A stretch of 64,000 nt of DNA from Candidatus Collierbacteria bacterium GW2011_GWB2_45_17 (GCA_001001485.1 LCKO01000004.1:4761-68760); one strand, 5' to 3'. Shown: positions 1 through 52,112, numbered from the stretch's first letter. Numbers and translations: made by a program. Notes: a model not told the origin generated them from the sequence alone.

Positions 1-3
1 AAA

Positions 4-492
4 ATGGGAAAAAAGACTCAGGAGAAAGCAACCACTTTTAATAATGCCGTAGAGGTGGTGGAAAATAAGACCGAAAAATTAATTCGGAGATTGGTAGGCG
101 GACTGTTGGTTTTCCCCGGTGTAAGAGATAGGATTAAGACTTGGTTTAATAAGATTGATTTGCCCGGGGCTTCCGGAAAAGCTCTAAAGCTAGTGGTCGA
201 GCAAGAGGAAGCAGATCCCGGAAAAATAATAGAAAATGTTCAAGCGGAGCTGAAAGAAGTGCTTCAAGAGGCGTACATGATTGGGGGAGAAAGTGAAAAT
301 ACGACCGAGAAAGATGTGCTGGACCTGGCCATTCAGCTAATCCGTGAGGCTATCAGGGAGGAAAAAAAGAAATTGATGGCAGAGATGGAGATGGCTCGTA
401 AGGAGGGTCTGGAAACAGAGGAGGATAGTCTGTTTGCTAAGCTTAACGATCTAAACATAGAAGAGAACAAGATAGTGTCCCTTTTGGGGTAA
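4..492 (+). CDS. Hypothetical protein (possibly the C-terminal part of a gene running off the window start); charged, coiled-coil-like C-terminus
   Basis: Intact ORF ending 22 nt before rpoD; no recognisable motif. The position upstream of rpoD is where dnaG often sits, but no primase motifs are seen. Confidence 0.35.
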
Positions 493-514
493 TTTTGAGG
501 CTTGTTGTGTTAAA

Positions 515-1633
515 ATGGGAGAGAATATTATGGCCGATAAAAAGGAAAATCTCCCCATTCAGTTAAAGATTGCCGAAATACTAGCCCTGGGAAAGGATCA
601 GGGGTTTGTAACCCAAGATGATATCCTGGAGTACTTCCCTCGGGCCGAAACCGAGGCAAATGATCTGGATTATCTTTACGAACTGCTTTTTAAAGCCGAT
701 ATTGATGTGTTTGAAAGTGTTTTGTCTGGACAAGATGCGGAAATTGCCGCGGCGGCCAGTGAGCTAGAAAAAGAGCTGGAGTCGCTCTCAAAACTGGAAG
801 ACACCGAGGTAAATGATCCGGTGAGAATGTACCTAAAGGAAATTGGAAGAATTCCTCTTTTAAAACGAGAAGAAGAAATCTCTTTGGCTCAGAAGGTGGA
901 GCGGGGAGACAAAAGGGCAAAAGACATGCTGACAAAATCCAATTTGAGGTTAGTAGTCTCGATTGCCAAAAAATACATGGGTCGGGGGATGAGTTTTTTG
1001 GATTTGATTCAGGAGGGTAACAAAGGTTTGATTCGGGCGGTGGAAAAGTATGATTGGACAAAGGGGTATAAATTTTCAACTTACGCTACCTGGTGGATTC
1101 GTCAGGCCATTACCCGGGCGATTGCTGACCAAGCCAGAACAATTCGGATTCCGGTCCACATGGTGGAGACGATCAACAAACTTATTAGAACACAAAGAAA
1201 ATTGATGCAAGACCTTGGTCGCGAGCCGACCGATGATGAAGTGGCCTCGGAGCTGGAAACGACTCCGGAGAAAGTTCGAGAGATCTTGAAGATAGCCCAA
1301 AAAACGACCTCGCTGGAAACTCCAATAGGAGACGATGAAGATTCACTTCTGGGTGACTTTATTCCTGATGAGAGACAGGCGACACCGTACGAGGCCACGT
1401 CCAGACAGCTAATGCATGAGAATTTGGAAGAGGCGCTGGGGTCACTGACGGAGCGAGAAAGTAAGGTGCTGAGAATGAGATTTGGACTGGCTGGAGATAA
1501 ACCACTAACCTTGGAAGAGGTGGGCAAGGTGTTCGGTGTCACTCGCGAAAGAATCAGACAGATAGAGAGCAAGGCCCTGCGGAAACTTCGTCACCCAAGC
1601 AGAAGAAGAAAACTACAGGATTATTTGGAGTAA
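515..1633 (+). CDS. rpoD: RNA polymerase sigma-70 factor RpoD
   Basis: Sigma70 region 2 ([61 protein letters not shown]), region 3 and region 4 ([31 protein letters not shown]). Confidence 0.95.
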
Positions 1634-1668
1634 AAACTCAAAAAATCAAAAACTCTAAACTAGAAGCC
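1633..1668. repeat. Degenerate copy of the 8-bp-period A-rich tandem repeat (aaaactcaa aaaatcaa aaactcta aactagaa) just after the rpoD stop
   Basis: Period-8 units RAAHTCWA, same family as the in-frame copies at 27462, 29342, 29603, 58306 and 60931. Confidence 0.6.
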
Positions 1669-1670
1669 TA

Positions 1671-2270
1671 TTAAATCTTTAGCTTCGGTTTTCCAGGAAC
1701 GACATGATGGTTCGGGCAACGAGCCTGATACTCTTGTTCCGCTCCAATTAGAACGATTGGATCATGGTAGTTGGCCGGTTGACCATTAATAAATCGTTGG
1801 GTTTTGGTGGCATCTTTGCCACAGGTTTTTCCATTCTCCCTGTATTTACAGATGGCCGAAGGACGATCTATTTCATCACACAAAGCGAGGAGCTGAGGCA
1901 TTGAGCCGAAAGGTTCACCACGAAAATCGAGAGATAAGCCGGCAAAGATTACTCGAATGTCTTGTCCGAGCAAAAACTCGACCACATTCACAATTTCTTG
2001 GTCAAAAAATTGAATTTCATCGATGGCGACAAGAGAGGTGTCTGTTTGAAGTAAAGGAATGATATCAACAGCGTTTTGAACCGCAGTGGCTGGATAGCTA
2101 CCCCCCGAGTGAGAACGAATTTCATCGATAGCGTTCCAGCGATCATCTTGAGCTGGCTTGAAGGCTTGAATTTTATTACCCCCATATTTTGCACGAGAGA
2201 TTTCTTTGAGAAGGATGTCGGTTTTGCCGGCGAACATAGAGCCGGCGATGCCTTTGAGTCTTTCGGTCAT
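1671..2270 (-). CDS. tdk: Thymidine kinase
   Basis: P-loop GSMFAGKT, VAIDEIQFF, C-terminal zinc-binding Cys pairs; good alignment to E. coli Tdk. Start taken at MTERLKG (ATG 2270); the ORF-track start at 2297 is likely a 5' over-extension. Confidence 0.9.
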   Translation of the reverse strand: MTERLKGIAGSMFAGKTDILLKEISRAKYGGNKIQAFKPAQDDRWNAIDEIRSHSGGSYPATAVQNAVDIIPLLQTDTSLVAIDEIQFFDQEIVNVVEFLLGQDIRVIFAGLSLDFRGEPFGSMPQLLALCDEIDRPSAICKYRENGKTCGKDATKTQRFINGQPANYHDPIVLIGAEQEYQARCPNHHVVPGKPKLKI

Positions 2271-2335
2271 ACAAAAATGATTATGACGGAACAACAAAAT
2301 TTGACAAGGGGAAACGGAGAGGAATATGATGAAGT

Positions 2336-2662
2336 ATGTTAGCCAATTTGATAATCAACGCTCTAGGCTTTTATGTGACTGCCTATATTGTTCCCGGGGT
2401 AAAGATAGAGAACTTCCAATCTTTAGCGGTGGTGGCAATTATCTGGGGAGTTTTGTCCATTATATTGCGACCGATATTGATAATTCTCACCTTGCCGGTG
2501 AACATTATGACCCTCGGACTTTTTACTTTTGCGATCAACGCGTTTTTGATTATGCTAACCAGTAGTATTGTGCCCGGCTTTAAAGTAGACGGCTTTGGGA
2601 CCGCGTTACTGGCCGCAGTAGTGCTTTCTATACTGAATGTAGTTTTGGGTGGACTGAGATAA
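2336..2662 (+). CDS. Phage holin family 4 / DUF360-like small membrane protein
   Basis: About 108 aa with 3-4 TM helices; pattern LIINALGFYVTAYIVPGVKIENFQSLAVVAIIWGVLSIILRPILIILTLPVNIMTLGLF matches the DUF360 (Phage_holin_4_2) family. Confidence 0.65.
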   Translation: MLANLIINALGFYVTAYIVPGVKIENFQSLAVVAIIWGVLSIILRPILIILTLPVNIMTLGLFTFAINAFLIMLTSSIVPGFKVDGFGTALLAAVVLSILNVVLGGLR

Positions 2663-2667
2663 ACTTT

Positions 2668-3138
2668 TTACTCTACGGTGACAAGACCGAAATGACCGGC
2701 GTTGAGATGGTTGTGGTATTTGTAAGTTCCGGGTTTGGGGAAGGAAAAAGATTTGGATTCGTTGGTCTTAGCAAGACCCAGATTAAGGGCCGGATAGTCA
2801 GTATGAGCCGGGTGAGGACTACTGGCAACGTCCATTTTAGCCTCGCCTTGGTTGATCCAGATAACGGTATCGCCGGCTTTGATAATTAAATTTTGGGGTT
2901 TGAAACCATTGGCGTCGTATGTCACAGTAAAATTATCTGTTATCAAGGCAGGGGGAGTGACTATCGTAGTAGGAGTTGGAGAAATAAAGGGATAAGTATT
3001 AAGCTCGGGAGCGTAAACGCTTCCGTTTTTAAAAAAGACATAATAAACAGCTATATACGCAAGGCCGCCGATAAGAAGGTAGATAACAACCCATCGCCAC
3101 ATAGGGTGCTTACCATAACCTGTTTTTGAATCATCCAT
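2668..3138 (-). CDS. Membrane-anchored cupredoxin-like (EfeO-type) domain protein
   Basis: N-terminal TM helix. C-terminal beta-rich domain with His-rich motifs (SSPHPAHTDYP, TYKYHNHLNAGHFG) resembles Cys-less cupredoxin-like domains; weak. Confidence 0.45.
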   Translation of the reverse strand: MDDSKTGYGKHPMWRWVVIYLLIGGLAYIAVYYVFFKNGSVYAPELNTYPFISPTPTTIVTPPALITDNFTVTYDANGFKPQNLIIKAGDTVIWINQGEAKMDVASSPHPAHTDYPALNLGLAKTNESKSFSFPKPGTYKYHNHLNAGHFGLVTVE

Positions 3139-3301
3139 GATTCAGTTTATATAATTTTGAGTCTAATTGTCAAATTTCTTGCTTCGGATGGCTAGTTTTG
3201 GTAAAATGAGCACGTCCGTTAATATTCCCCTGCCCGCCTCGCGGCGGATAAATAGCCCAGAAGGTAGACCTGCCTGCCGTGAGGCAGGACGCCTCCAATA
3301 T

Positions 3302-3547
3302 ATGACTTGGTATGCTTATGTGTTATTAAGTTTAAAGAATGGTAATCTCTACAAGGGGATTACGAATGATTTGGAGAGAAGGATTTCGGAGCACAATTTG
3401 GGGAAAAATCGATCAACCAAAATAAATGCACCTTGGAAAATTGTATATTTTGAAAAATTTATGACTCGAGATGAGGCAAGAAACAGGGAAAAGTTTCTCA
3501 AGTCAGGCAAGGGTCGTGAATTTTTAAAATTTATTATTCCCCTGTAG
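3302..3547 (+). CDS. GIY-YIG nuclease family protein (small stand-alone GIY-YIG domain)
   Basis: YAYVLLSLKNGNLYKGITNDLERRISEHNLGKNRSTKINAPWKIVYFEKFMTRDEARNREKFLKS: GIY...YIG, R, E and N catalytic pattern. Start at ATG 3302; the ORF-track start 3167 is an over-extension. Its stop codon lies inside the 5' acceptor stem of the following tRNA. Confidence 0.75.
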   Translation: MTWYAYVLLSLKNGNLYKGITNDLERRISEHNLGKNRSTKINAPWKIVYFEKFMTRDEARNREKFLKSGKGREFLKFIIPL

Positions 3548-3609
3548 CTCAACGGTAGAGCAACATCCTGTTAAGATGAAGGTTCGTGGTTCGAATCCAC
3601 GCGGGGGAG
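3538..3609 (+). tRNA. tRNA-Asn (anticodon GUU), CCA not encoded
   Basis: Hand-folded cloverleaf: acceptor TCCCCTG/CGGGGGA, D-arm GCTC-AACGGTA-GAGC, anticodon loop CTGTTAA (GTT), T-arm CGTGG-TTCGAAT-CCACG, discriminator G. Confidence 0.85.
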
Positions 3610-3684
3610 CTAAAAGGCCTTAATCTGACCAAAAATGCAGTTATTATGGTAATTAAACAAATGTTAGTCATATTGGTAAACGGA

Positions 3685-4410
3685 ATGAAAAAGATGGTGG
3701 TGATTGTTCTAGTTGTACTACTTTTTCTTGCTTCACCAAATAATGTTAGCGCCAATGGTGGTGTTGTAGTAGAGCCTTCCCAGAATGAAATTGAAAAATT
3801 GAACAATAAAATTGATGCATTAATTTTGAGCAATAATGCTAATGGAATTTCGGGAAATATAATTGGTTTAGCTAATACTCAAATGCAATTTTTAACGTTT
3901 ATCCTTGCTGTGGTTGGTATAGGGATTCCTGTTTTTGCGTTCTTTTTTAGAAAAGAGATTCAAATAATAAAAGATAGAGCAATGTTGAGTGTAGTGAACA
4001 TGGAAAATGAGGTTAAAAAAATAAAGTTATCTGAGAAGGACATCGCCAAAAGAAAAAATGATATTGATAGACTTTATAGTGATTTTGAAAAGAGATTAAC
4101 GGATATTGACGAAAAAATGAAAAAACTGAAATCCACAGAGGGGGGGCCAAAAGAAAAGAATAGATTAGCAGAATTAGAGCAAGAGATAATGGGATTAAAG
4201 AGGAAGCTTTCTCAGGGCATTCAGCCTTATACTTTGAACGTTTCAAGTTATCCAGGCACCGCTAGTGGATATGTTGGACCTCTATCTACTACAACATCCA
4301 CATCAATGGGTAGTTTTGGTGCAATAAGTCCAAGTTCTGCTACAACAACTACGGTTGAGCCCTTTTATCCCAGCCCCTCTGCATCACCATCCCCTGAACC
4401 AGAAGATTAG
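3685..4410 (+). CDS. Secreted/membrane hypothetical protein: signal peptide, one internal TM helix, coiled coil, Ser/Thr/Pro-rich C-terminal tail
   Basis: MKKMVVIVLVVLLFLASPNNVSA signal-like N-terminus; second hydrophobic helix FLTFILAVVGIGIPVFAFFF; K/E-rich heptads; C-terminal STTTSTSMGS...PSPSASPSPEPED. Start at 3685; the ORF-track start 3586 lies inside the tRNA. Confidence 0.5.
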   Translation: MKKMVVIVLVVLLFLASPNNVSANGGVVVEPSQNEIEKLNNKIDALILSNNANGISGNIIGLANTQMQFLTFILAVVGIGIPVFAFFFRKEIQIIKDRAMLSVVNMENEVKKIKLSEKDIAKRKNDIDRLYSDFEKRLTDIDEKMKKLKSTEGGPKEKNRLAELEQEIMGLKRKLSQGIQPYTLNVSSYPGTASGYVGPLSTTTSTSMGSFGAISPSSATTTTVEPFYPSPSASPSPEPED

Positions 4411-4489
4411 TTCACCTTGAGGGAAAATGAACACAACTTAATTGTTTGATTTCCTTTAGTCTTTCTCTCACTTGTTTTACCCACACAGG

Positions 4490-4556
4490 ATTTTGAAAAA
4501 CCTTGATAACTTGTGACAAACTTTCGGCCAGAGCAAAACTAGGGACTGGGAACCAG
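4490..4556. repeat. Copy A of a roughly 65-bp imperfect direct repeat; copy B is at 6852..6918
   Basis: Roughly 75-80% identity, with the shared core ttcggYcagagcaaaactagggacWgggaRc. Reverse-strand translations are conserved at protein level (PVPSFALAESLSQVIKVFQNPVWV vs PVPSFALTEAIERCIKAFQNPIWS). Confidence 0.7.
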
Positions 4557-4610
4557 ATGATACCTAATATGTCTATGGTGTAATATTGTTTAGATGCGGA
4601 TAAATCGTAA

Positions 4611-4988
4611 ATGAATACTAACGAAAAAGAAAAAAGGTGCTTAAATGGTCAGAAGATAAGAAATTTTTTAAGAAAATATAGGTTTATTGCCATTGTATTA
4701 GGGTGGGCTCTTTCCATGGGGGCGGGGTATGTCTTTATTGAAGTATTCACGGTGAGCGATGTTGTGGGTACAACCTTTTCTTGGATTACATTTATATTGT
4801 ATTTTATATGGATATCAAACGGTATCGGCGGATTAAAGAAAATTCTTGGTCTGACCGTAAGCGTAACAAAATGGTTATTAGCGATCTCTATTGTTTTTTT
4901 GGTTATTAGTTTGGCTGTTGGATGGGTAAATACTATATCCCCAACCACTATTATTATTATTCTATTATTACTAATATTAGCCCGATAA
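4611..4988 (+). CDS. Hypothetical integral membrane protein (4 predicted TM helices)
   Basis: Hydrophobic segments FIAIVLGWALSMGAGYVFIEVF, FSWITFILYFIWISNGIGG, LLAISIVFLVISLAVGWV, IIIILLLLILA; AT-rich codon usage. Confidence 0.4.
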   Translation: MNTNEKEKRCLNGQKIRNFLRKYRFIAIVLGWALSMGAGYVFIEVFTVSDVVGTTFSWITFILYFIWISNGIGGLKKILGLTVSVTKWLLAISIVFLVISLAVGWVNTISPTTIIIILLLLILAR

Positions 4989-5078
4989 CGACACTTCTTG
5001 TTGGTCGTTGTTAATTGGGGTTTGAGTAAAGAGATGGGGGTCAAACGACTTAGAATGCTTGAAATAGAAAACTGAAAG

Positions 5079-5462
5079 ATGATTACATTGACGGCCAGTG
5101 AGTTTATTGCGAAGAAGAACGATGATTTTAATATGAACCATGAAGTTGGGGTCAAGGATATTGGTCGTAAGGGGCGGTACTATTATCATCGAGAGGCCTG
5201 GACTTTTAGAATACAGAGTAATTTACCCAAAAAAGTCTTTGTGATTGAGAGACTGAGGAAGGAAAGCACAGAAGGCGAGTTAACGTACGGCAATTGGAAG
5301 AAGGGAGACATTGAATACCGTATTGGCTATTACATTGTTGGAAGAATAGGCAAGGCCAGTGGAAGGTGGGTTTGGGGTCAGTTTTGTCCCTTAATTCCTT
5401 CAAATGATTTAGTAGCCTTACTTGATCAAGCCAAGAAAGAAGGCGTCATTGTTGAGTCTTGA
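5079..5462 (+). CDS. Hypothetical cytoplasmic protein
   Basis: Intact 127-aa ORF in the AT-rich island; no recognised motif. Confidence 0.35.
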   Translation: MITLTASEFIAKKNDDFNMNHEVGVKDIGRKGRYYYHREAWTFRIQSNLPKKVFVIERLRKESTEGELTYGNWKKGDIEYRIGYYIVGRIGKASGRWVWGQFCPLIPSNDLVALLDQAKKEGVIVES

Positions 5463-5712
5463 GTGTTTATATAAGAGGTGAACAAATGAAGACTCTTAAA
5501 CAGGTATCTTTACACAATCGCATTTATCGCCTGCTTTAGAGTTATTTAAAGGTTTTGTATCGCATCTTTATTGATCAGTTTTTATAGGTACTTTACTAAT
5601 CAATTAGGGGACTCTTGGCCACAGGAGATATCCTAGGTTTAGAAAGTGAAAAAGAAACACCGAGCCAATAATTACATTAACTAGAAGATTCGACTTTATA
5701 ATGTCAACCAAA

Positions 5713-6249
5713 TTACGTTTTTATTTTAAGAACTTTATGCAAAAAATCACCAGGACCGATAACTTTTAAATTACCTATTTTAATTTTTTTTAAATCTCCC
5801 ATATCTTTAGTTACCAAATAATTTGCCCCCAACATACCTGAACCATCAAACAACAAGTTGTCCGTACCCTTATTAGTTTGTACTGGTTTATCAACAAACA
5901 TTCTATTAATATAGCCTTTATCTGTAACCATTTTTATTAGTGGTCCAATATGTAAACTATCAATAATTCCTTCTTTGGCTTTGTGCTGTAACACACGATC
6001 GTATTCTTTTAATAAATCGGCGTTTATTATTAGATGAAACATATCAATTTTAAGCGCTTCAATTATTTGATATGGGGCACTATCAATAAATTTTCTTTTT
6101 GATGCTATCAAGGCAGACAACACAATACCAGTGTCTAAAACAACACGAGCTTTATTATCGTTTGGTGGTGTTGGTATGGCTTTTCTGGGAACAGTTAACG
6201 ATTTTCTTTTTAAGGCTGGCAATCTTTCTGTCGCAGGCAATCTAGGCAT
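5713..6249 (-). CDS. PIN-domain putative toxin (TIGR00305-like PIN family) with basic/Pro-rich N-terminal extension
   Basis: VVLDTGIVLSALIAS (PIN N-terminal acidic motif) and C-terminal LVTKDMGDL resemble PIN-family toxin components; N-terminal 35 aa rich in R/K/P. Confidence 0.65.
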   Translation of the reverse strand: MPRLPATERLPALKRKSLTVPRKAIPTPPNDNKARVVLDTGIVLSALIASKRKFIDSAPYQIIEALKIDMFHLIINADLLKEYDRVLQHKAKEGIIDSLHIGPLIKMVTDKGYINRMFVDKPVQTNKGTDNLLFDGSGMLGANYLVTKDMGDLKKIKIGNLKVIGPGDFLHKVLKIKT

Positions 6250-6279
6250 AAGTTTTTGTTCTAATTCGATATAAACAAG

Positions 6280-6732
6280 TTATTTTGTTTGAGTAAGCGC
6301 CGCCTCATTGTAAATAGTTACAATATTATTAATATCAATTGTCATGCTAGGGTTTTTCGTGAGTATTTCAATTACTATTTTCAAAACAGTCAGATAGATC
6401 AATATTTTGTTCGGAGAATCAGGAATCCACTTTTTAAACTTCGAAAATTGGGGAGTTTGTTTAAGCTTTGATAAATCATTCTTATTTTTATTTTTTTCTA
6501 AAGCATCAAATAAACTTTGTGCAGTTTGTAGTGGATCAGGTGAATTTTCCAGTATTTTAATTACACCGTCTATCGTACCCGTAAGATTTCCATTAGGCAC
6601 ATTTTCCATAGATCCACAGTGAGGACATTGTGACTTGTTATTTGAAAAGAAAGCTGACGAACCCACACCCAATTCAATTCCCGACGAAAAAACTCTATGA
6701 CATCGTTCACATTGCATTAAAAGTAATGGCAT
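6280..6732 (-). CDS. Zinc-ribbon protein (CxxC...CxxC) encoded immediately upstream of the PIN gene; candidate cognate antitoxin/partner
   Basis: MQCERCHRVFSSG...CPHCGS zinc ribbon at the N-terminus; same strand, 30-nt gap to the PIN gene. Confidence 0.45.
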   Translation of the reverse strand: MPLLLMQCERCHRVFSSGIELGVGSSAFFSNNKSQCPHCGSMENVPNGNLTGTIDGVIKILENSPDPLQTAQSLFDALEKNKNKNDLSKLKQTPQFSKFKKWIPDSPNKILIYLTVLKIVIEILTKNPSMTIDINNIVTIYNEAALTQTK

Positions 6733-6851
6733 ATGGTGTATTTTACTATGAACAAATTTTTTATTGATTAAAACCTAAACTGTATCCGCTCGTGTTAATA
6801 TTTTGATTTGGTTCAATCTTTGTCGTGCTTGTTCTGACCATATTGGATTCT

Positions 6852-6918
6852 GGAAAGCCTTGATACAACGTTCAATCGCTTCGGTCAGAGCAAAACTAGG
6901 GACAGGGAGCTTTGGTTT
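6852..6918. repeat. Copy B of the roughly 65-bp imperfect direct repeat (see 4490..4556)
   Basis: Aligned by eye: attctggaaagccttgatacaacgttcaatcgcttcggtcagagcaaaactagggacagggagc. Confidence 0.7.
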
Positions 6919-6923
6919 GGGAG

Positions 6924-7454
6924 TCAGATGCAATTTACTTCTCTCAGTATTTCTTTGCTTATTTCGTCAAGAGGTCTATTTGCATTGACGAAAATTGCAT
7001 TTCTTTTTTTCATTTCACCTTCCCACCAATCTTTCCATCCTAATACAACATCTCTACTTTCTTGGGTATTACCAATATCACTTGTTCCCTCTCGGTTTTT
7101 AAGTCTTTCGTTTAGGGTTTGAGAGTTAAGAAGTAGGACAAATTTCTTGTCAAAAAAAGGGAGAATATCGTTCATGTTTGATGCGATTCCACTATAGAAA
7201 GCTAAATTTGATTTTTGAGATTTTAACAGTAGTTCAAGTTTTTCGGTGTTACAAATCCATTCTGCGTTTTTAACATGTTCAGGGTTGGCATTGTCGTAAT
7301 TTTCAAAAATATTTTTGGATTCTTTGTGGTACATTTCAAACATTCCTTTGATGTTTTCAATGTCGCTGGACTCATACCCCATTTTTTTAAGATGTTTGCC
7401 CACAGATGTTTTACCTGTTCCAGATACTCCTGTTATTAAGATCCTTTCTTTCAT
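6924..7454 (-). CDS. P-loop NTPase, small nucleoside/nucleotide-kinase-like ATP-binding protein
   Basis: MKERILITGVSGTGKTSVGKHL Walker A right at the N-terminus (AAA_18/AAA_33-like kinase fold). Start taken at ATG 7454; the ORF-track start 7694 adds 80 aa of low-complexity over-extension. Confidence 0.55.
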   Translation of the reverse strand: MKERILITGVSGTGKTSVGKHLKKMGYESSDIENIKGMFEMYHKESKNIFENYDNANPEHVKNAEWICNTEKLELLLKSQKSNLAFYSGIASNMNDILPFFDKKFVLLLNSQTLNERLKNREGTSDIGNTQESRDVVLGWKDWWEGEMKKRNAIFVNANRPLDEISKEILREVNCI

Positions 7455-7470
7455 TCGAATAATTATATCA

Positions 7471-7486
7471 AGGTTCGAAAATCGAC
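7471..7486. repeat. 16-nt repeat aggttcgaaaatcgac (second copy at 11054..11069); resembles a degenerate tRNA T-arm/3' end
   Basis: Exact 16-mer shared. Compare the tRNA-Asn 3' half aaggttcgtggttcgaatccacgc. Confidence 0.5.
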
Positions 7487-7527
7487 GAACTTGACAAAGG
7501 TAGATTTTAAATATAAAAATTGAGTTA

Positions 7528-8061
7528 ATGAAAAACCAACAAGGATTTGGAATTATTATTCTACTTCTCATAGTTACCGGAATTATGGTGTTCGGTACCT
7601 TAGCTGCGGGAGCTGCGGTGCTTCTAGGAAAAGCACCTGAATGTCCCACCCAAGGATCTTCCTCGGCCAGAAGTGAAAAAGAAATAGGAGACACGTTAGA
7701 ACAAGGATCGGTAAATATTACTGACGGCGAAGCGACAACGCTGGCACAAGGGTATATTGGGGGAAAAGTTGACGAGGCACGGGTCTGTTTTACCGAGGGA
7801 CTGGGTCATGTTTCGGGTAAAATGAATCTTGGTTCAGTCAGTCCATCATTTTATGTTTCAGCAGGAGTTGATCTGTCCGGATCGGTTCCTAAAGCTACTA
7901 ATTTAAGTATTCAACTAGGTTCGCTTCCTAACATTTCTTTTATTTCCGGTTTGGCAATGGATAAAATAAATTCATTAATTTCTGAAAATTTGTCTAAGTT
8001 TGAATTAAAGCAAAAATATACGGCTTCTTTTTCAAATGGATCACTTACCATAAGTAAATAG
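7528..8061 (+). CDS. Membrane-anchored secreted hypothetical protein
   Basis: N-terminal TM/signal anchor FGIIILLLIVTGIMVFGTLAAGAAVLLG followed by a Ser/Gly-rich extracytoplasmic domain. Confidence 0.45.
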   Translation: MKNQQGFGIIILLLIVTGIMVFGTLAAGAAVLLGKAPECPTQGSSSARSEKEIGDTLEQGSVNITDGEATTLAQGYIGGKVDEARVCFTEGLGHVSGKMNLGSVSPSFYVSAGVDLSGSVPKATNLSIQLGSLPNISFISGLAMDKINSLISENLSKFELKQKYTASFSNGSLTISK

Positions 8062-8099
8062 TTACTCAATACGCCACATGTAAATGATACTATTAGACA

Positions 8100-8849
8100 A
8101 TGACGGATTCAAAAGTAAAAACAGTAGATAAAAAAATTGATGTTTACGAAAGACAAGCTGTTCTTTATGATGAAATATATGCGTCTCAAGGCAAAGACTA
8201 TCAGGAAGAGGCTCGTCAAATACACAATGTTATAGATAGCCACAAACGTTCAGATGGATCGCAGCTTTTGGATGTTGGTTGTGGAACGGGTGGTCATTTT
8301 CCCTTCTTGTCTAAATGGTATAAAGTAGAAGGTTTGGATTTAGATGGGCATATGTTGGCGGTTGCCAAAAGACGATTTCCAGATATTTCTTTCCATCAGG
8401 GAGATATGGCCAATTTCAATTTAGAAAATCAATTTGATGCTGTAACTTGTTTGTTTAGCGCTATCGGCTATACAAAAAAAGCTGAAAGTATGCAGAAGTC
8501 TATCGTTAATATGGCCAAACATGTAAACCCAGGAGGAGTATTGGTAGTAGAGCCTTGGTTTTCTCCAGATCAGTGGACTGTGGGTAGACCATCTGCGGTT
8601 TTTGTTGATAAACCAGACCTAAAAATTGCCAGAGTAAATATTAGCGAACAAAGAGATAATGTTTCTGTAATTAATTTTCATATTTTAGTTGCCACTCCAG
8701 GAAAAGTTGAAGAATTTACTGAACTCCACGAGTTAGGATTGTTTACCAAAGAACAATATCTTCGAGGTTTTGAAATGGCCGGGTTAAAAGTAGAACACGA
8801 CCCAAAAGGCATTACTGGTAGAGGATTGTATATTGGTTTGAAAAGTTAA
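8100..8849 (+). CDS. Class I SAM-dependent methyltransferase (TylM1/Methyltransf_25-like)
   Basis: Motif I LLDVGCGTGGHFPFL, motif II/post-I LDLDGHMLAVAKRRF, FDAVTCLFSAIGY. Confidence 0.8.
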   Translation: MTDSKVKTVDKKIDVYERQAVLYDEIYASQGKDYQEEARQIHNVIDSHKRSDGSQLLDVGCGTGGHFPFLSKWYKVEGLDLDGHMLAVAKRRFPDISFHQGDMANFNLENQFDAVTCLFSAIGYTKKAESMQKSIVNMAKHVNPGGVLVVEPWFSPDQWTVGRPSAVFVDKPDLKIARVNISEQRDNVSVINFHILVATPGKVEEFTELHELGLFTKEQYLRGFEMAGLKVEHDPKGITGRGLYIGLKS

Positions 8850-9059
8850 CAATACTTTTATTGTTTGCTAATACACTAAGGGTAATTTGAGATCAGTATT
8901 TAGCTATTTGAAGCTAAGCTGTGCCACTCCAGGCACGAAAGTGCCACACGAGCCATCACAACCGTAATACTGCTATTGCTCTTGAGAACCCCGCTGGAAT
9001 TGTTTAATCTATAAGTAGATAGTCATTACAAACGGTGACTTACTATGATATGAAACAAA

Positions 9060-9074
9060 CCACCTTCGAGGTGG
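9060..9074. promoter_or_regulatory. Palindromic motif CCACCTtCGAGGTGG, copy 1 of 4, 87 nt upstream of the 9161 CDS
   Basis: Inverted repeat CCACCTC/GAGGTGG; extended shared context caaaccaccttcgaggtgggataggggtgggg with copy 2. Confidence 0.6.
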
Positions 9075-9160
9075 GATAGGGGTGGGGTATTAGAGAAAAA
9101 AAGTTTGAAAATAGTTCGGTCTACTCACTACAGGTCGACCCAACCGGCGGGCAGGGTTTT

Positions 9161-9862
9161 TTGGGATGTTATGATTTATTTATGGGAAAGTTCGATTGTG
9201 CTCAAAAACAAAAAGTCGTCCTTAAGTGGATGAAGTGGGGACTGGTCCTCTTTGTAATAGCGGTATTCGCGATGTATGGATATTTTGACGGATACCTCTC
9301 CCGAAGGGTTGTTTTGTCAGAGCCTTCTTTGGTGACAACTGAAACGACAGCCGAAGTTTGTTACGAAAAATCGATGAATATTGAGTGTTTGGAAGGGTTT
9401 GGGTGTACGCGAGTTGAGGCTTTTTGTAACTGTATGGGAGGATCGAACGAGTTGGTAGAAGACTATGGAGCTTGCGTAATTGATGGGGATGAGTATACGG
9501 GAATATCCTTTCAAGAGCTGGAGCAGGGTTGGTATTGGGGAGTTCCTGATTACAAAAAGCCTGGTACGCCCAGTAATTGGGTTTTTAAAAACGATGGGAC
9601 TAGAAGTGAGGGTTGGTTCAGACCAGACCCGACCGAAAGCTCCGATTATATTCTTGAAGCCTCTGAGGGTTCTTGTGACGACAATGCACAGTGTCAATGG
9701 GCGGGAGAGGGTTGTGGTGGTGGACATGGAATGTGCACCAACAATCCGGAAAAGTATCAGGATGTAATAACCACTTGTGATATTAACGAAAACTTTCCGG
9801 CAAATCGTGGTTATTCGTGCGGGTGTGTGGTAACTCTTGGTAGGTGTGGCTGGAAGAGATGA
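9161..9862 (+). CDS. Cysteine-rich membrane-anchored/secreted hypothetical protein
   Basis: TM helix WGLVLFVIAVFAMYGYF, then a domain with at least 16 Cys (CYEKSMNIECLEGFGCTRVEAFCNCMGG ... CGCVVTLGRCGW). Confidence 0.45.
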   Translation: MGCYDLFMGKFDCAQKQKVVLKWMKWGLVLFVIAVFAMYGYFDGYLSRRVVLSEPSLVTTETTAEVCYEKSMNIECLEGFGCTRVEAFCNCMGGSNELVEDYGACVIDGDEYTGISFQELEQGWYWGVPDYKKPGTPSNWVFKNDGTRSEGWFRPDPTESSDYILEASEGSCDDNAQCQWAGEGCGGGHGMCTNNPEKYQDVITTCDINENFPANRGYSCGCVVTLGRCGWKR

Positions 9863-10034
9863 AACGGTATGAAAATTAGGGGTAGAGTAAAAGTAGCGAA
9901 GATGAAAACAAATCTTGATTTCCTGGCTGTTTATTTTGCGGCATCTCTTGTGGTGACTGTTGTCTCCCCGTTTTGGAGAAAAATGAGAAGGTTAAATGGT
10001 TAGAAATCGATTCACTTCTTTGGTTGTATACAAA

Positions 10035-10049
10035 CCACCTCCGAGGTGG
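10035..10049. promoter_or_regulatory. Palindromic motif CCACCTCCGAGGTGG, copy 2, 47 nt upstream of the 10096 CDS
   Basis: Exact 15-mer; a possible -35-like ttgtat sits immediately upstream. Confidence 0.6.
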
Positions 10050-10095
10050 GATAGGGGTAGGATACGCTTCCAGTGTGTCCTGCTAAGATATCTTT

Positions 10096-11028
10096 ATGGA
10101 TTTTGATAAACACAGAAATGCTCAGGAACTGAATTTGGGTGAAGTATCCAACTTTCTGGAAAATAATGGGTTTGTGGAAGTTAATCTCAACCAACAATGG
10201 AGACATATCACCGGTAGCGTGTTTAAAAATGGCACAAAACAATTCTTCAAATTAGCCTCAACCGAAGGTGTTGCCGAAAGAACGGAAAACGAGTTCGCAT
10301 GGAACAAATTGATAAACAACCGGCCGAAACTAAAACTACCAGTTTCGGTACCAAAGATTTATGAGTCAGGTAAATACAACGGCTTGTTTTGGTTTACCTG
10401 TGAATTTGTAGAAGGCACTCCGCTAGCTCAAGAATCTCAAAGTGGTGAAACGAAAAAACTTGAAAATAATCTATCAAAAATAGCGTTGACGGCAAAGATA
10501 ATTTTGGAATTCAAGTCGGATAAACACCTTCCAAATGATGAGAGAAAAAATGATGAGAAAGAAGATCCAAAAACGGTATTCTTGGACAGGATAAAGCATT
10601 GGATGGGTCAGTTTGATAATAACGTTGACGACCTATATGATTTCATTGAAAAACGGATTGAATATGGACTAAAAGCTCCCCAACATGGTGATTTCGTCCC
10701 CTGGCATATTTTTATCACGAACGAAAACAAACTTTTTCTAATTGATGGGGAACATTCTAGGATTGCGGGATTTAAATTTTACGATATCGCATATTTCTAC
10801 CATAGAGTTTATACAAAACTGAAAAGACCAGACATTGCCAACAAATTTCTGGAAGAATTTAATAACATTTATCAATTCAGTAAAGCAGACAAAGAATGTC
10901 TTGGATTAATTCTTGCCCAAAGAGTTATCGGTGGTTATTTTGACTCAAGTAAATGTGGCGAAAAAAATGTCTGCCTCCATGATGAACTAAAAAGAAAGAT
11001 TCTTGAGGGTAAAATTACTATTGGCTAA
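10096..11028 (+). CDS. Phosphotransferase-family (APH/choline-kinase-like) protein-kinase-fold protein
   Basis: HGDFVPWHIFITNENKLFLIDGEHSRIAGFKFYDIAYFY matches the APH catalytic-loop HGD.hp.N... and the ...lIDwE.. activation segment. Confidence 0.55.
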   Translation: MDFDKHRNAQELNLGEVSNFLENNGFVEVNLNQQWRHITGSVFKNGTKQFFKLASTEGVAERTENEFAWNKLINNRPKLKLPVSVPKIYESGKYNGLFWFTCEFVEGTPLAQESQSGETKKLENNLSKIALTAKIILEFKSDKHLPNDERKNDEKEDPKTVFLDRIKHWMGQFDNNVDDLYDFIEKRIEYGLKAPQHGDFVPWHIFITNENKLFLIDGEHSRIAGFKFYDIAYFYHRVYTKLKRPDIANKFLEEFNNIYQFSKADKECLGLILAQRVIGGYFDSSKCGEKNVCLHDELKRKILEGKITIG

Positions 11029-11053
11029 TTTTTTGATTGAAAAGGTTGAGGAA

Positions 11054-11094
11054 AGGTTCGAAAATCGACCCAACCACATCCACCTCCGAGGTGG
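11054..11094. promoter_or_regulatory. Composite repeat: aggttcgaaaatcgac + cccaacc + CCACCTCCGAGGTGG (palindrome copy 3), 37 nt upstream of the 11131 CDS
   Basis: Shares the 16-mer with 7471 and tcgacccaacc with 9135-9145; palindrome at 11080-11094. Confidence 0.6.
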
Positions 11095-11130
11095 GACAGT
11101 GTATTTTTAGTAAGATAAAGGTGGAATGTT

Positions 11131-11922
11131 ATGACACATAATAACAAAAGGCTCCCTGGCCTGTTGGCTCCTTTGATAATTCTTCTGATGTTTGGTGGTA
11201 TCTATGCTATTAGTAATCTCAACAAAGAGGGGGAGGAGGAAACTAAACAAATTAAGAACAGCGATATCAGCTATATTCCTTTTGGCGACTCTTTTACCAT
11301 AGGTTTGGGGGTGGCAGAACCTCATCGCTGGCCAAATATGATGGTAGAGAATTTTGCCAAGGAGGATATAAGTATTAAAATCCTTGAGAATCCTGCTGTA
11401 TCCGGCTATACCGTGAGGGACATGATTAATTTTGAACTGCCGATATTGGAAACCTTAAGGCCTGATTTTGTCACAGTGTTTATCGGCACAAACGACAGTT
11501 TTGTTCAAAAAGATGTTGTGGTTTTTGAAAAAGATTACAAAGAACTGCTTGATAAAATCCAAAAGTTACTACCGGACCCAAAAAGTATTGTGCTGATCAC
11601 AATCCCTGATTATTCAAAGTTTCCAGCTCTTAAACACTACCGAAGAATAAATTATTCAGAGTCTATCACCTCTTACAATGAGGTAATCAGGCAAGAATCT
11701 GTTGATCGAGATCTGATTTTGGCGGACATTTATCCAGTAAGCCAAAAAATGACTGACGAACAGGACTTTATACCGGATGGGCTTCATCCATCTGGGGCAG
11801 GGTATGTGAAGTGGGAAAGAGTGATATATCCGAAGGTGAGAGAGCTATTGCTCAAATCACCTCCGAGGTGGAATACTTTTGTGATGAAGTCTGTCCAGAC
11901 TGAAACCATCTTTTTTGGCTAA
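11131..11922 (+). CDS. SGNH/GDSL hydrolase-type esterase with N-terminal membrane anchor
   Basis: GDSFT (block I Ser), FIGTNDS (block III), DGLHPSGAGY (block V DxxH); N-terminal TM. Palindrome copy 4 (11857-11871) lies in its last 20 codons. Confidence 0.8.
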   Translation: MTHNNKRLPGLLAPLIILLMFGGIYAISNLNKEGEEETKQIKNSDISYIPFGDSFTIGLGVAEPHRWPNMMVENFAKEDISIKILENPAVSGYTVRDMINFELPILETLRPDFVTVFIGTNDSFVQKDVVVFEKDYKELLDKIQKLLPDPKSIVLITIPDYSKFPALKHYRRINYSESITSYNEVIRQESVDRDLILADIYPVSQKMTDEQDFIPDGLHPSGAGYVKWERVIYPKVRELLLKSPPRWNTFVMKSVQTETIFFG

Positions 11923-12688
11923 TATTTGCGAAGATTTGCATAGATATGGTAGAATATACATAGATATGACAAATAGCCTTATTTCGATCAGTAACATCGC
12001 CAAACAACTCGGTGTTTCAATAGATACCCTCAGGAGATGGGATAAAACCCATCGACTTCCCTCGACCAGAATTGGCCCACGGGGTCATCGCTATTATAGA
12101 CAAGCTGATATTGACCTCTTTTTACGAAATGATATCTACTTGGCCAGGCAGTGGGCTATGTCTACGGTAGGATCAACTCCACCATCTGAAGTATATTGCC
12201 AAACAAGAGATGTATTTCAGGTGAGGCTAGAAAGACTCCAGGGGCAACTCCAACGTGTCGTTCCCGAGTCAACAATGTCATTGTTGTGTGCAATCGCGGG
12301 TGAAATCGGGAATAACTCTTTTGATCACAACCTGGGTAATTGGCCAGATGTAACAGGAATATATTTCTCATTCGATTTGAGAAACGGGTACATTGTATTA
12401 GCTGACCGAGGTTTGGGAATATTAACAACCCTTAAACGGGCACTTCCCGAACTAAAAGATACGGACGAGGCGTTAAAAATAGCTTTTACAGAAACAATAT
12501 CTGGTAGGCGTCCTGAGGTTAGGGGAAACGGTTTGAAGTTTGTTAGGCAAGTTGTAATTGATAACCCATTCACACTCATGTTTCAAACAGGGGATGTATA
12601 TCTAAATCTAAAACAAAATGACAGGGATGTTATTATTTCTCATACGGACGGAAATATAAGAGGATGTTTGGCTATAATAAATTTTTAA
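11915..12688 (+). CDS. Excisionase/MerR-type HTH (HTH_17) fused to a GHKL (HATPase_c) ATPase domain, RsbW/anti-sigma-kinase-like
   Basis: HTH: ISISNIAKQLGVSIDTLRRWDKTHRLPSTRIGPRGHRYYRQADIDLFL. GHKL N-box EIGNNSFDH, G1 DRGLGI, G2 GNGLKFV. Alternative start at ATG 11966. Confidence 0.6.
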   Translation: MANICEDLHRYGRIYIDMTNSLISISNIAKQLGVSIDTLRRWDKTHRLPSTRIGPRGHRYYRQADIDLFLRNDIYLARQWAMSTVGSTPPSEVYCQTRDVFQVRLERLQGQLQRVVPESTMSLLCAIAGEIGNNSFDHNLGNWPDVTGIYFSFDLRNGYIVLADRGLGILTTLKRALPELKDTDEALKIAFTETISGRRPEVRGNGLKFVRQVVIDNPFTLMFQTGDVYLNLKQNDRDVIISHTDGNIRGCLAIINF

Positions 12689-12695
12689 AACCAAT

Positions 12696-12974
12696 ATGAT
12701 AATAGAACTAAAAAAATTCGGCACAGCATTGATATCCCGACCATCGGGAAAGGAAGCTTGGTTAGCTTTTCAATCATCTCTTAAGGATGTTTCAGAACAT
12801 GAGGAAGTAATAATTGATTTCACCGGTGTTTTGGTGCTCACACCATCGTGGGCGGATGAGTTCTTAACTCCTTTGAGGACCCGTTTCAAGGATAAAGTGA
12901 AATTAATGGATACAGACAATGCTTCTGTTGAAGCAACCATGACCATACTCGATAAACCGGTGGGGAATGCCTGA
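12696..12974 (+). CDS. DUF4325-type STAS-like domain protein (anti-sigma-antagonist-like fold)
   Basis: About 92 aa; ...ALISRPSGKEAWLAFQSSL...VIIDFTGVLVLTPSWADEFL fits the STAS_2/DUF4325 pattern (i.ldF.gV..lt.SF.dEl); 8 nt downstream of the GHKL gene. Confidence 0.55.
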   Translation: MIIELKKFGTALISRPSGKEAWLAFQSSLKDVSEHEEVIIDFTGVLVLTPSWADEFLTPLRTRFKDKVKLMDTDNASVEATMTILDKPVGNA

Positions 12975-14109
12975 AGGACTAGCCTTTATGAAAATTTATA
13001 ATACTCTCACAAAAAAGATAGACGTTTTTGCGTCTTTAAGGCCCAAAAAAGTATCGATTTATGTTTGTGGTATTACTCCGTATGACACGACCCATCTGGG
13101 TCACGCCTTTACTTATATTAGTTTTGACGCACTCATTAGATACTTAAAGTTTAAAAGATATGAGGTTACATACACTCAAAATGTAACAGACATAAACGAC
13201 AGAGACGGAGACATTTTAGAACGAGCCCGCCAACAAAATATCTCCTGGTCTACCTTGGCTACATTCTGGACAGATAAGTTTTTGGGTGACATGAAAGCTC
13301 TAAATTGGATTCAACCAACCCATTACTTAAAAGCGTCCGAGAATATAGACTCCATGGTTTCTCTGATCCAGAAACTTTTGGCCAAGGGAATTGCTTATAC
13401 CGGTAACAATAGTGTTTATTTGGACGTAACCAAGAAGAACGACTATGGCAAGCTTTCCAGGTTAACTAAAGAGCGGATGCTGAAAAAGGCAAAGGAATTT
13501 GAAGAAGACATAGATAATCCCGACAAAAGAAACCCGCTGGATATAACTTTATGGAAAGCGATCGATTCTAATCAACCCAGTCACATACCATCTTTTGATA
13601 GCCTGTTTGGCAAAGGTAGACCGGGTTGGCACATAGAGTGTTCGGCCATGAGCACCCTTTCTCTGGGGGAACAAATTGATATTCATGGAGGAGGGACGGA
13701 CTTGATTTTTCCTCATCATGAAGCAGAGATCGTTCAAAGCGAGGGCTCAACCGGAAAAATTCCCTTTGCAAAATACTGGGTTCACACCGGTCAAGTTTTC
13801 TACAAAGGAGAAAAGATGAGTAAATCAAAGGGAAATCTGGTGATGGTCTCCAGTCTTTTAGAAAAATACTCCTCGAACGCAGTTCGCTGGCTGATTTTGT
13901 CTCATCATTACAGAAAAAGATGGGAGTTCGATGAAGAGAAACTGGCGCGTGCTCAAAATAAAGTTGAGGTGTTAGAAGGCGACCTTCGTGATGGTAGCGA
14001 AGAAGAGTTTACTAAAATCATGGATAATGATCTCGATACTCCGAAGGCCTTAGAACTATTACTTCGTTCCAAAAACAAACGCGTCTACGACGTTTTAGGT
14101 TTTAGATAG
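12967..14109 (+). CDS. cysS: Cysteinyl-tRNA synthetase (short form lacking extended C-terminal domain)
   Basis: CGITPYDTTHLGHA (HIGH), WHIECSAM and FPHHEAEI (zinc ligands as in E. coli CysRS), KMSKSKGN. Confidence 0.9.
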   Translation: MPEGLAFMKIYNTLTKKIDVFASLRPKKVSIYVCGITPYDTTHLGHAFTYISFDALIRYLKFKRYEVTYTQNVTDINDRDGDILERARQQNISWSTLATFWTDKFLGDMKALNWIQPTHYLKASENIDSMVSLIQKLLAKGIAYTGNNSVYLDVTKKNDYGKLSRLTKERMLKKAKEFEEDIDNPDKRNPLDITLWKAIDSNQPSHIPSFDSLFGKGRPGWHIECSAMSTLSLGEQIDIHGGGTDLIFPHHEAEIVQSEGSTGKIPFAKYWVHTGQVFYKGEKMSKSKGNLVMVSSLLEKYSSNAVRWLILSHHYRKRWEFDEEKLARAQNKVEVLEGDLRDGSEEEFTKIMDNDLDTPKALELLLRSKNKRVYDVLGFR

Positions 14110-14126
14110 CGTGTTACAATGCTGTC

Positions 14127-39832: not shown

Positions 39833-39903
39833 CAAATTCGATAGGGCCAGGCCTTGAAGATCTGGGACCCTATAAGGCCTGGCCCTGTGGGAGGATTGGG
39901 GGA
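39833..39903. repeat. REP/MITE-like palindromic element, copy 1 of 3 (between convergent genes)
   Basis: aaattcgatagggccaggccttgaagatctgggaccctataaggcctggccctgtgggaggattgggg; stem agggccaggcctt / aaggcctggccct. Confidence 0.8.
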
Positions 39904-41937: not shown

Positions 41938-42011
41938 ACAAAATTCGATAGGGCCAGGCCTTGAAGATCTGGGACCCTATAAGGCCTGGCCCTATAGGAG
42001 GATTTGGGGAG
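41938..42011. repeat. REP/MITE-like palindromic element, copy 2 of 3 (immediately upstream of the PBP gene start)
   Basis: Near-identical to copy 1, including the flanks aaattcgat... and ...ataggaggatttgggg. Confidence 0.8.
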
Positions 42012-52037: not shown

Positions 52038-52112
52038 GGGCGACTAGCTCAATGGTAGAGCAAACGTCTTATACACGTTCGGTTTCAGGTTCGAGCCCTG
52101 AGTCGCCCACCA
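52038..52112 (+). tRNA. tRNA-Ile (anticodon UAU), CCA encoded
   Basis: Hand-folded: acceptor GGGCGAC/GTCGCCC, D-arm GCTC-AATGGTA-GAGC, anticodon stem AACGT/ACGTT with loop CTTATAC (TAT), T-arm TCAGG-TTCGAGC-CCTGA, ACCA 3' end. Confidence 0.75.

Follow-up and report, generated by a model that had tools for sequence, protein, structure and literature searches.

A hypervariable interval downstream of tRNA-Asn in a Candidatus Collierbacteria genome, interpreted as a probable tandem array of cassettes bounded by large serine recombinase attachment sites

The locus described here lies in a 64,000-nt stretch of DNA from Candidatus Collierbacteria bacterium GW2011_GWB2_45_17 (Microgenomates; GCA_001001485.1 LCKO01000004.1:4761-68760), hereafter the window, and comprises a tRNA-Asn(GUU) gene together with the genes that separate it from cysS. 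We interpret this interval as what is probably a tandem array of small cassettes, bounded by attachment (att) sites of large serine recombinases (LSRs), from which the recombinase genes themselves have been lost. A first-pass annotation, made from the sequence alone, had described an AT-rich island that reached to position 8100 and comprised a GIY-YIG nuclease gene overlapping the tRNA, genes for secreted and membrane proteins of no known family, a PIN toxin with a zinc-ribbon partner and a P-loop kinase-like protein. Open reading frame (ORF) calls and Pfam searches on the island proteins showed that inventory to be essentially right, although two small minus-strand ORFs, termed A and B below, had been overlooked. 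Its statement that the island has no integrase on board also held, as no recombinase domain was found among the ORFs of the window. When ten LSRs were used as tblastn queries for remnants in the window, only the 10-12 residues encoded by the tRNA itself were recovered, the rest of the matches not going beyond chance. All features are listed in Table 1.

The AT-richness 3' of tRNA-Asn is real. The GC content of positions 3611-8099 is 0.354, compared with 0.432 for the rest of the window, the lowest value of all sliding windows of that length (mean 0.426, sd 0.024). Tetranucleotide frequencies likewise correlate least with those of the window in the island (0.58-0.69 vs ~0.86), so by both measures this is the most deviant part of the window. 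The fall in GC already begins at the GIY-YIG gene (GC 0.335-0.346), which had escaped the first-pass annotation, and the stretch from 8100 up to cysS (8100-12966) is intermediate (0.399). Gene by gene the GC content forms a mosaic, ranging from 0.32 to 0.45.

Comparison with relatives showed the region to be accessory and to sit at an integration site at tRNA-Asn. The closest relative, locus L005 (RpoD 99%, holin 94% and GIY-YIG 95% identical), is identical base for base through position 3610, the last nucleotide of tRNA-Asn, and does not align beyond it. Where the window has its island, L005 has a 537-aa LSR (Resolvase, Recombinase and Zn_ribbon_recom domains), small ORFs and a type I restriction-modification system; the LSR gene lies on the opposite strand to the tRNA and ends inside the tRNA 3' end. 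Two loci of one species, L050 and L051 (RpoD 94%), have different LSRs at tRNA-Asn, 25% and 65% identical to that of L005. In L015 and L017, both of one sister species (RpoD 80%, cysS 85%), the order is DnaG-RpoD-holin-cupredoxin-tRNA-Asn-Fic-cysS, with ~1.5 kb between tRNA-Asn and cysS, holding Fic only. L016 encodes a cysS protein identical to that of L015 and L017, yet has ~3.4 kb of other genes in the same gap. Among relatives the interval ranges from 1.5 kb to >9 kb, and beyond cysS the window agrees in gene order with L014 (cysS 93% identical). None of the 15 genes at 3685-12974 was found at this locus in the relatives examined (L005, L015-L018, L050, L051), no gene of 8100-12966 lies in the tRNA-Asn-cysS gap of L015 or L017, and the 241-aa protein had no homologue in any related locus examined. 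Because the gap in L015 and L017 is so short, the variable interval is 3611-12966 and does not end at 8100 as had been proposed; the first-pass annotation saw its most AT-rich half. The gene order at this locus was found again in at least 24 contigs (different samples, same population), and the island is therefore fixed in the population concerned. Instability extends to the conserved side, with thymidine kinase (TK) and cupredoxin (1671-3138) only 71% and 76% identical in L005 despite the 99% identity of RpoD; RpoD and TK are separated by an additional NUDIX gene in L005, and TK is missing from L015.

Table 1 Features of the tRNA-Asn locus and its surroundings, with positions counted from the first nucleotide of the window
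Feature	Position	Strand	Remarks
RpoD	515-1633	+	
Thymidine kinase (TK)	1671-2297	-	
Holin-4-like protein	2336-2662	+	
Cupredoxin	2668-3138	-	
Degenerate copy ATTCCCCTG of the tRNA-Asn start	3224-3232	+	Left repeat; right copy at 3536-3544
GC-rich leader	3233-3301	+	Hairpins CCGCC-tcgc-GGCGG and CCTGCC-gtga-GGCAGG
GIY-YIG nuclease gene, 81 aa	3302-3547	+	Pfam PF01541, 62 bits, E=6.4e-17
tRNA-Asn(GUU), anticodon GTT	3538-3610	+	ARAGORN; Rfam 64 bits
tRNA end and putative right arm	3588-3632	+	
Putative right-arm sequence TAAAAGGCCTTAATCTGACCAA	3611-3632	+	Right arm of an unoccupied attB, or remnant of an LSR 3' end
241-aa envelope protein	3685-4410	+	Putative cassette 1 cargo; signal peptide, one further transmembrane segment, coiled coil, Ser/Thr/Pro-rich tail
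Likely relic A (small ORF 4412-4561)	4412-4576	-	Putative LSR tail coding sequence 4412-4547, core, ~8 codons of LSR 3' end (DILGIIW)
Relic A core GGGAACCA	4548-4555	+	
125-aa membrane protein, multiple transmembrane segments	4611-4988	+	Putative cassette 2 cargo; no family
127-aa soluble protein	5079-5462	+	Putative cassette 2 cargo; no detectable family
PIN_3 domain protein, 178 aa	5713-6249	-	Putative cassette 2 cargo; Pfam PIN_3 (PF13470) 34.6 bits, cut-off 27
Zinc-ribbon and helical-bundle protein, 150 aa	6280-6732	-	Putative cassette 2 cargo; below Pfam cut-off; zinc ribbon and helices from AlphaFold2 (AF2) model
Likely relic B	6775-6933	-	Putative LSR tail coding sequence and core GGGAGC; core at 6905-6910 on + strand
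AAA_18 P-loop kinase-like protein, 176 aa	6924-7454	-	Pfam AAA_18 40.9 bits; NCBIfam kinase matches weak
Exact 17-mer AAGGTTCGAAAATCGAC	7470-7486 and 11053-11069	+	Intergenic repeat, not tRNA-derived
177-aa protein with N-terminal membrane anchor	7528-8061	+	
Genes of the distal variable part	8100-12974	+	S-adenosylmethionine (SAM) methyltransferase, Cys-rich 233-aa protein, APH-like kinase, SGNH hydrolase, MerR-type helix-turn-helix (HTH) protein, DUF4325 protein
cysS	12967-14109	+	Conserved distal flank, synteny resumes

Genomic islands at tRNA genes are textbook elements and are attributed to tyrosine integrases, the type that the idea of a duplicated tRNA 3' end had implied for this locus. 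The integrase family involved here is instead that of the LSRs. A degenerate tRNA-Asn pattern yielded 29 species representatives, and the 18 with at least 1.5 kb downstream of the tRNA were counted. An LSR gene was found against tRNA-Asn in 8/18 of these Microgenomates representatives (six full-length, two fragments), and in several further loci only the last 7-12 LSR codons remain at the tRNA. No tyrosine integrase was seen at tRNA-Asn in any locus examined. All tRNA-abutting LSR ORFs end ...(W/L)LPRVDSNHEP, the RVDSNHEP-type ending being encoded by the reverse complement of the last ~36 nt of tRNA-Asn. A metagenome scan for the exact tRNA followed by a base other than T gave no match. Separately, in L008 and L009 (~9285-9307 and 8867-9313) a tRNA-Asn 3'-end fragment that ARAGORN did not call adjoins an LSR C-terminal fragment of 143-148 aa, and this pair sits downstream of the cupredoxin gene.

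A likely link between these recombinases and the window is provided by the small ORFs A and B. The two are paralogous (56% amino acid identity over 39 residues, E=8e-17) and also share a 29-nt near-identical DNA core. A profile built from both matched 48 clusters among 1.84 billion representative proteins, nearly all of them ORFs of 50-100 aa, and the family is defined by a conserved C-terminal tail of ~40 residues with the motif PSFALT..IKAFQNPIWAEQARERLKQIK.LT. In at least 11 of the 48 clusters the tail is preceded by the C-terminus of an LSR, with three LSR subfamilies represented. The junction is in frame and falls at the very W-L-P after which integrated LSRs continue with their tRNA-encoded ending. 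For instance, residues 1-50 of P0205 match residues 463-512 (of 520) of the L023 LSR with 80% identity, P0235 matches residues 483-533 (of 542) of the L005 LSR, and P0242 matches residues 402-505 (of 510) of the L036 LSR. The WLP codons, TGG CTC CC, are the reverse complement of GGGAGCCA; the tRNA ends in GGGAGCCA, as do the relics when read on the plus strand (4548-4555 and 6905-6910). The core common to the tRNA end and the tail is GGGAGC(CA)-like, with degenerate versions in relic A of the window (GGGAAC), in the L052 tail copy (GGATC) and in L053 and L055 (CGGAGC).

Sequence conservation differed between the two ORFs. Among the tail copies, substitutions fall mostly at third codon positions (e.g. 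2, 2, 9), as they also do when relic B is compared with L054 and L055. Relic A is the exception, its differences to other copies being flat across codon positions. The DILGIIW of relic A is the counterpart of the LSR end LGILSANW, and as a whole relic A looks like an attP-type junction present as a decaying copy. Judged from these alignments, ORFs A and B are likely to be relics of LSR attachment sites. An Rfam search over positions 1-15000, with E up to 1, returned the tRNA only, which means that the conserved relic of 150 nt corresponds to no known RNA. Scans of IMG/VR with the tail profile and with the L005 LSR returned nothing. Relic B had also been considered as a frameshifted C-terminal extension of the P-loop kinase, an idea that was dropped as the N-termini of the family are LSR ends and not kinases.

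The arms on either side of the core occur in exchangeable combinations. Two left arms (the tRNA end and the tail) and two right arms (CAGTTGGCACTTAATATAC and T.AA....CTTAATCTGACC) were distinguished in the window and in L016, L025, L030, L046, L052, L053 and L055, and all four combinations were seen, as exchange at a common core predicts. The flank of the tRNA in the window (3611-3632) is of the second right-arm type. Its 13-mer TTAATCTGACCAA is exact in L052, where it follows a tRNA-3'-end copy at an identical offset, and arms related to 3611-3632 come after tail-type left arms in L053 and L055. The tail copies that could be oriented against the tRNA-Asn end (A and B of the window, L052 and L016) are all on the strand opposite to the tRNA. 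Relic-type structures also lie between cassettes in L052 and L016, and L054 keeps the order tail, zinc-ribbon gene, PIN as at relic B.

Given these observations, we assign a probability of roughly 65% to the explanation that the locus is a tandem array of cassettes, each bounded by LSR att sites, that have lost their recombinases. The interval from tRNA-Asn to cysS (3611-12966) would then be a hypervariable accretion zone with an AT-rich core (3611-8099), built through site-specific integration of LSR elements at the 3' terminus of tRNA-Asn, with the tRNA 3' end as the left arm of the recombination site. In this lineage the LSR gene lies directly against the attachment site, its ORF running ...W-L-P across the core GGGAGCCA. 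In the integrated state this ORF reads into the reverse complement of the tRNA and stops after ...RVDSNHEP(SS), and in the un-recombined state it would read into the ~40-residue tail VPSFALT..IKAFQNPIWAEQARERLKQIK.LT, which would serve as both attP arm and native LSR C-terminus. The window would have lost all recombinase genes and kept the sites, at 3588-3632, 4412-4576 and 6775-6910. Cassette 1 (3611-4553) would carry the 241-aa envelope protein, and cassette 2 (4554-6910) two small proteins together with the zinc-ribbon and PIN genes; what lies beyond cassette 2, up to cysS, may be older or differently bounded material. The cassettes would have arisen by tandem accretion with subsequent LSR loss, and may still be mobilisable in trans, should the retained sites be functional. 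Of the two possibilities offered by the first-pass annotation, a decayed integrative element is the better, since L005 breaks at the tRNA 3' end and relatives carry integrase-bearing elements there. That annotation was right in kind, a decayed integrative island at tRNA-Asn, and wrong on the att sites, the extent and the membership of the GIY-YIG gene.

Several points weigh against this array of LSR cassettes. No full-length LSR bearing the tail was found; the 48 tail-bearing ORFs are all at most 218 aa and IMG/VR contained none, so that the role of the tail as native C-terminus of an active LSR is inferred only. No integrated element was covered over its whole length, nor was a tail-type attR seen distal to an intact LSR, the L005 and L051 sequences being too short. 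Relic B has a right flank (6911-6930) unlike any known arm. The sequence taken as a right arm at 3611-3632 could be plain native flank, in which case the tRNA site would be an empty attB and cassette 1 would need another origin. LSRs normally recombine attP with attB only, so that repeated insertion beside an existing element would need right arms similar enough for reuse, which is plausible from the arm combinations above. Finally, no LSR-type sites bound the distal part (6911-12966), in which a different palindromic repeat separates the genes, and the cargo has no phage or plasmid match.

The rival explanation that survives best, and which we still regard as unlikely, is that the interval is a hypervariable region of surface and conflict genes in the style of the candidate phyla radiation (CPR), turned over by illegitimate or homologous recombination, with the att-like relics as bystanders of unrelated LSR visits. 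In its favour, the window lacks both a recombinase and a tRNA-fragment repeat, the GC of the cargo is mosaic, and LSR-type sites are absent from the distal half of the interval. The divergence upstream of the tRNA noted above (TK and cupredoxin in L005, and the TK and NUDIX genes that come and go) points in the same direction. Against this reading, homology breaks exactly at the tRNA 3' end, relics A and B stand precisely at cassette boundaries and in the one expected orientation, and the same kind of boundary recurs in L016 and L052.

Less probable again is that the small ORFs are independent genes, for example a regulator or antitoxin travelling with the zinc-ribbon module, and that the LSR fusions in the databases are gene-calling artefacts. 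The N-termini of the family are mutually unrelated except for the LSR C-termini joined in frame at the same WLP, and no start codon is present in relic A or in the L052 and L016 copies. Relic B does have a TTG start, and the zinc-ribbon gene follows it on the same strand after 42 nt, an order kept in L054; against this, the L052 copy is on the strand opposite to the zinc-ribbon gene. The coding-like substitution pattern and the 48 clusters, mostly ORFs of 50-100 aa, also speak for independent genes.

The version put forward in the first-pass annotation, of successive islands of the tyrosine-integrase type bounded by degenerate copies of the tRNA T-arm, is hardly tenable. It took a 16-mer at 7471 and 11054 for possible relic att duplications that would mark off segments 3610-7486 and 7487-11069. 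The repeat exists, and is in fact an exact 17-mer starting at 7470 and 11053, in two intergenic regions and with GGTTCGAA in common with the T-loop. When aligned to the tRNA-Asn 3' half, its best local score is 8-9, a value reached by 4-12% of random 47-mers from the window, and the resemblance is therefore no better than chance. No 14-mer of the tRNA 3' 45 nt recurs (<=2 mismatches) in 3611-13000, where 1.7 are expected by chance, and no copy of the tRNA 3' end was found in the window, 3611-13000 included, or in L005. As a result, neither the relic-att proposal nor its two segments are supported. Genuine tRNA-end relics, in L052 and L043, are exact copies of 15-17 nt of the acceptor end, and tyrosine integrases were missing from tRNA-Asn throughout the loci examined. 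In L052 (1-172) a 105-nt insert lies between the tRNA 3' end and the exact 17-nt copy AATCCTGCCGGGGGAGC; L043 has a similar second tRNA-end copy ~40 nt downstream. The last alternative, that there is no island and the low GC of a core region stems from membrane and low-complexity proteins, has next to no chance of being right: several products are indeed membrane or coiled-coil proteins, a class tending to AT-richness, but 0/15 genes (3685-12974) are at this locus in the relatives examined, and a search of 5.8 billion proteins gave only six homologues of the zinc-ribbon protein, none of which is encoded on the closest relative's large contig.

The 17-mer may act as a regulatory or junction motif. 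At the scale of 64 kb a single exact pair is unremarkable, with 0.47 such pairs expected from Markov-2 simulations; within the small intergenic space the pair is significant. The two copies of the 17-mer lie 58 and 78 nt upstream of two exported-protein genes, and a palindromic repeat comes directly after the second copy. Related fragments (TCGACCCAACC) are present at 9135-9145, and among the loci compared the 17-mer is restricted to this genome. The palindromic repeat belongs to a 35-nt family around CCACCTCCGAGGTGG, with four copies in the distal variable region (9055-9089, 10030-10064, 11075-11109 and 11852-11886; palindromes at 9060, 10035, 11080 and 11857). All four are between genes or at gene ends, and none was found elsewhere in the 64 kb or in the related loci compared.

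The GIY-YIG gene requires separate treatment. Its 10-nt overlap with the tRNA (3538-3547) was confirmed, and its stop codon, TAG, is formed by tRNA positions 8-10 (U8-A9-G10). Membership of the island was not borne out, as the gene is on the conserved 5' side of the tRNA and L005 has it at 95% identity with the same tRNA overlap, yet carries an entirely different island. The GIY-YIG proteins of L041, L042 and L049 are 40-43% identical to that of the window, and in each of these loci the tRNA start recurs as an exact copy of 10-11 nt, situated 287-368 nt before the tRNA. In L041 and L049 this copy is followed by a hairpin CCGCC-N4-GGCGG, also present in the window and in L005, and L005, like the window, keeps a degenerate copy of the tRNA start. 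The tRNA-start copy was absent from all six tRNA-Asn loci that have no such cassette. Across ~400 kb of loci, 7/7 GIY-YIG matches lay within 1.1 kb of tRNA-Asn. On this arrangement, the GIY-YIG gene forms a separate AT-rich cassette inserted into the tRNA-Asn 5' end. The catalytic domain covers nearly all of its 81 residues. In L049, GIY-YIG genes were found on both sides of the tRNA.

The cargo offered few matches to known families. The PIN protein scored 19.8 against TIGR00305, below the cut-off of 29.15, and a PDB sequence search with it gave no match. The zinc-ribbon gene lies 30 nt upstream of PIN on the same strand; the AF2 model of its product is of moderate confidence (pLDDT 71) and found no significant match in the PDB with Foldseek, and the protein matched no antitoxin family in Pfam, PHROGs, NCBIfam or PADLOC. 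Pairing of the two genes was compared over five loci. The PIN and zinc-ribbon pair named in the first-pass annotation is present, and is kept in the close relative L054, where the zinc-ribbon gene is followed by a PIN gene 87% identical to that of the window. That the pair is fixed was not supported: the gene after the zinc-ribbon gene encodes a 219-aa protein in L052, a DUF6602 protein in L055 and, in L053, an ORF with an HNH-like Cys/His start (32 residues only; motifs read by eye). With partners so varied, a fixed PIN/antitoxin pair is unproven. We hypothesise that a conserved zinc-ribbon partner is combined with exchangeable effectors, which is reminiscent of conflict systems. The 219-aa protein of L052 contains an RHGLAH (Rx4H-like) motif, also read by eye.

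Searches of the island proteins against PHROGs, NCBIfam and PADLOC gave weak or generic matches only, none of them pointing to a known defence system. Phage and plasmid sequences yielded no blastn match to the island, and phage sequences no tblastn match to the zinc-ribbon or the 127-aa protein. The cargo (envelope proteins, a PIN nuclease with its zinc-ribbon partner and a small kinase) most likely would serve surface variation and conflict or addiction functions. In the distal part, the MerR-type HTH gene is followed by the DUF4325 gene, their ends overlapping (11915-12974). The HTH region matches the PADLOC model 'mad1' (E=5e-11), and the other components of the 'mad1' system were not seen.

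Elsewhere in the window, ARAGORN called a tRNA-Ile with anticodon TAT (UAU) at 52038-52112, an unusual isoacceptor in bacteria. A 53-nt exact repeat (39834-39886 and 41941-41993, with a partial third copy at 62764-62809) contains the inverted repeat TAGGGCCAGGCC...GGCCTGGCCCT. Octamer runs AAGAACTC/CAAGAACT at 27484, 29358, 58306-58340 and 60932-60957 presumably represent a repeated low-complexity coding motif.

An LSR family stands against tRNA-Asn in ~40% of the sampled Microgenomates, with an ORF that crosses the attachment core. A more far-reaching model, which we offer tentatively, is that this family targets the tRNA-Asn 3' terminus with an attP core inside its own ORF, so that integration would swap a ~40-residue tail for a ~10-residue tRNA-encoded one. 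Cassettes reduced to the two half-sites, namely the tail arm and the final ~8 codons of the LSR, would still serve as substrates in trans, and the tRNA-Asn-cysS interval would behave as an integron-like array serviced by visiting LSR elements. If this were true, the tail swap could act as an inbuilt switch that sets the stability or directionality of the recombinase. Should the tail exchange be real, it would provide a testable, sequence-defined attB/attP pair for organisms that lack genetic tools, and would account for a fast-turnover locus of envelope and conflict genes in tiny CPR genomes. For annotation, recurrent 'hypothetical small proteins' such as A and B would be recombination-site relics that mark cassette boundaries.

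Parts of the locus resemble known systems. For the GIY-YIG cassette the closest parallel is SegB in the tRNA gene cluster of T4 (PMC2330249), likewise a sporadic GIY-YIG gene adjoining a tRNA. The protein described here differs in being an 81-aa catalytic domain only, with no recognisable DNA-binding domain, and its cassette in being flanked by a 10-11 nt tRNA-start repeat and taking its stop codon from tRNA positions 8-10. The PIN_3 gene resembles VapBC modules in lying 30 nt downstream of a small same-strand partner within mobile DNA, and departs from them in that the partner is a 150-aa zinc-ribbon and helical protein unlike known antitoxins and in that PIN is replaced in other loci. An att core within the 3' end of the integrase ORF is known from Mx8 IntP/IntX and SSV-type integrases (PMC6070905; PMC4383910), and means that integration gives the integrase a different C-terminus. 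Those enzymes are tyrosine recombinases, whereas here an LSR would exchange a ~40-residue tail for a tRNA-encoded one of 10-12 residues.

Tandem accretion and cis-mobilisable elements (CIMEs) have been described for ICESt1/ICESt3 of Streptococcus thermophilus (PMC5704250). The likeness lies in successive integration at one target, in which older elements lose their recombination genes and keep their att sites, leaving att-bounded arrays of cargo (PMC5704250). The described cases involve tyrosine integrases, with the 3' end of the target directly repeated; the present locus involves LSRs and a core of ~6-8 nt, its sites would consist of the last ~8 LSR codons with a coding tail arm, and its cassettes are only 0.9 and 2.4 kb. 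With the tRNA islands recognised by Islander (PMC4383910) the locus has in common its position at a tRNA 3' end, sporadic occurrence among relatives, deviant composition and an intact tRNA. According to that paper, serine-family integrases were not known to target tRNA genes, and its island signature requires a displaced tRNA fragment (PMC4383910). Here the integrases are LSRs, exchange would occur at the very 3' terminus (GGGAGC-CA), and no tRNA fragment repeat is present in the window. No later report of serine integrases at tRNA genes was found in the literature searched, a search that was not exhaustive. In this comparison, a probable LSR-based accretion locus at a tRNA gene emerges as what is new here.

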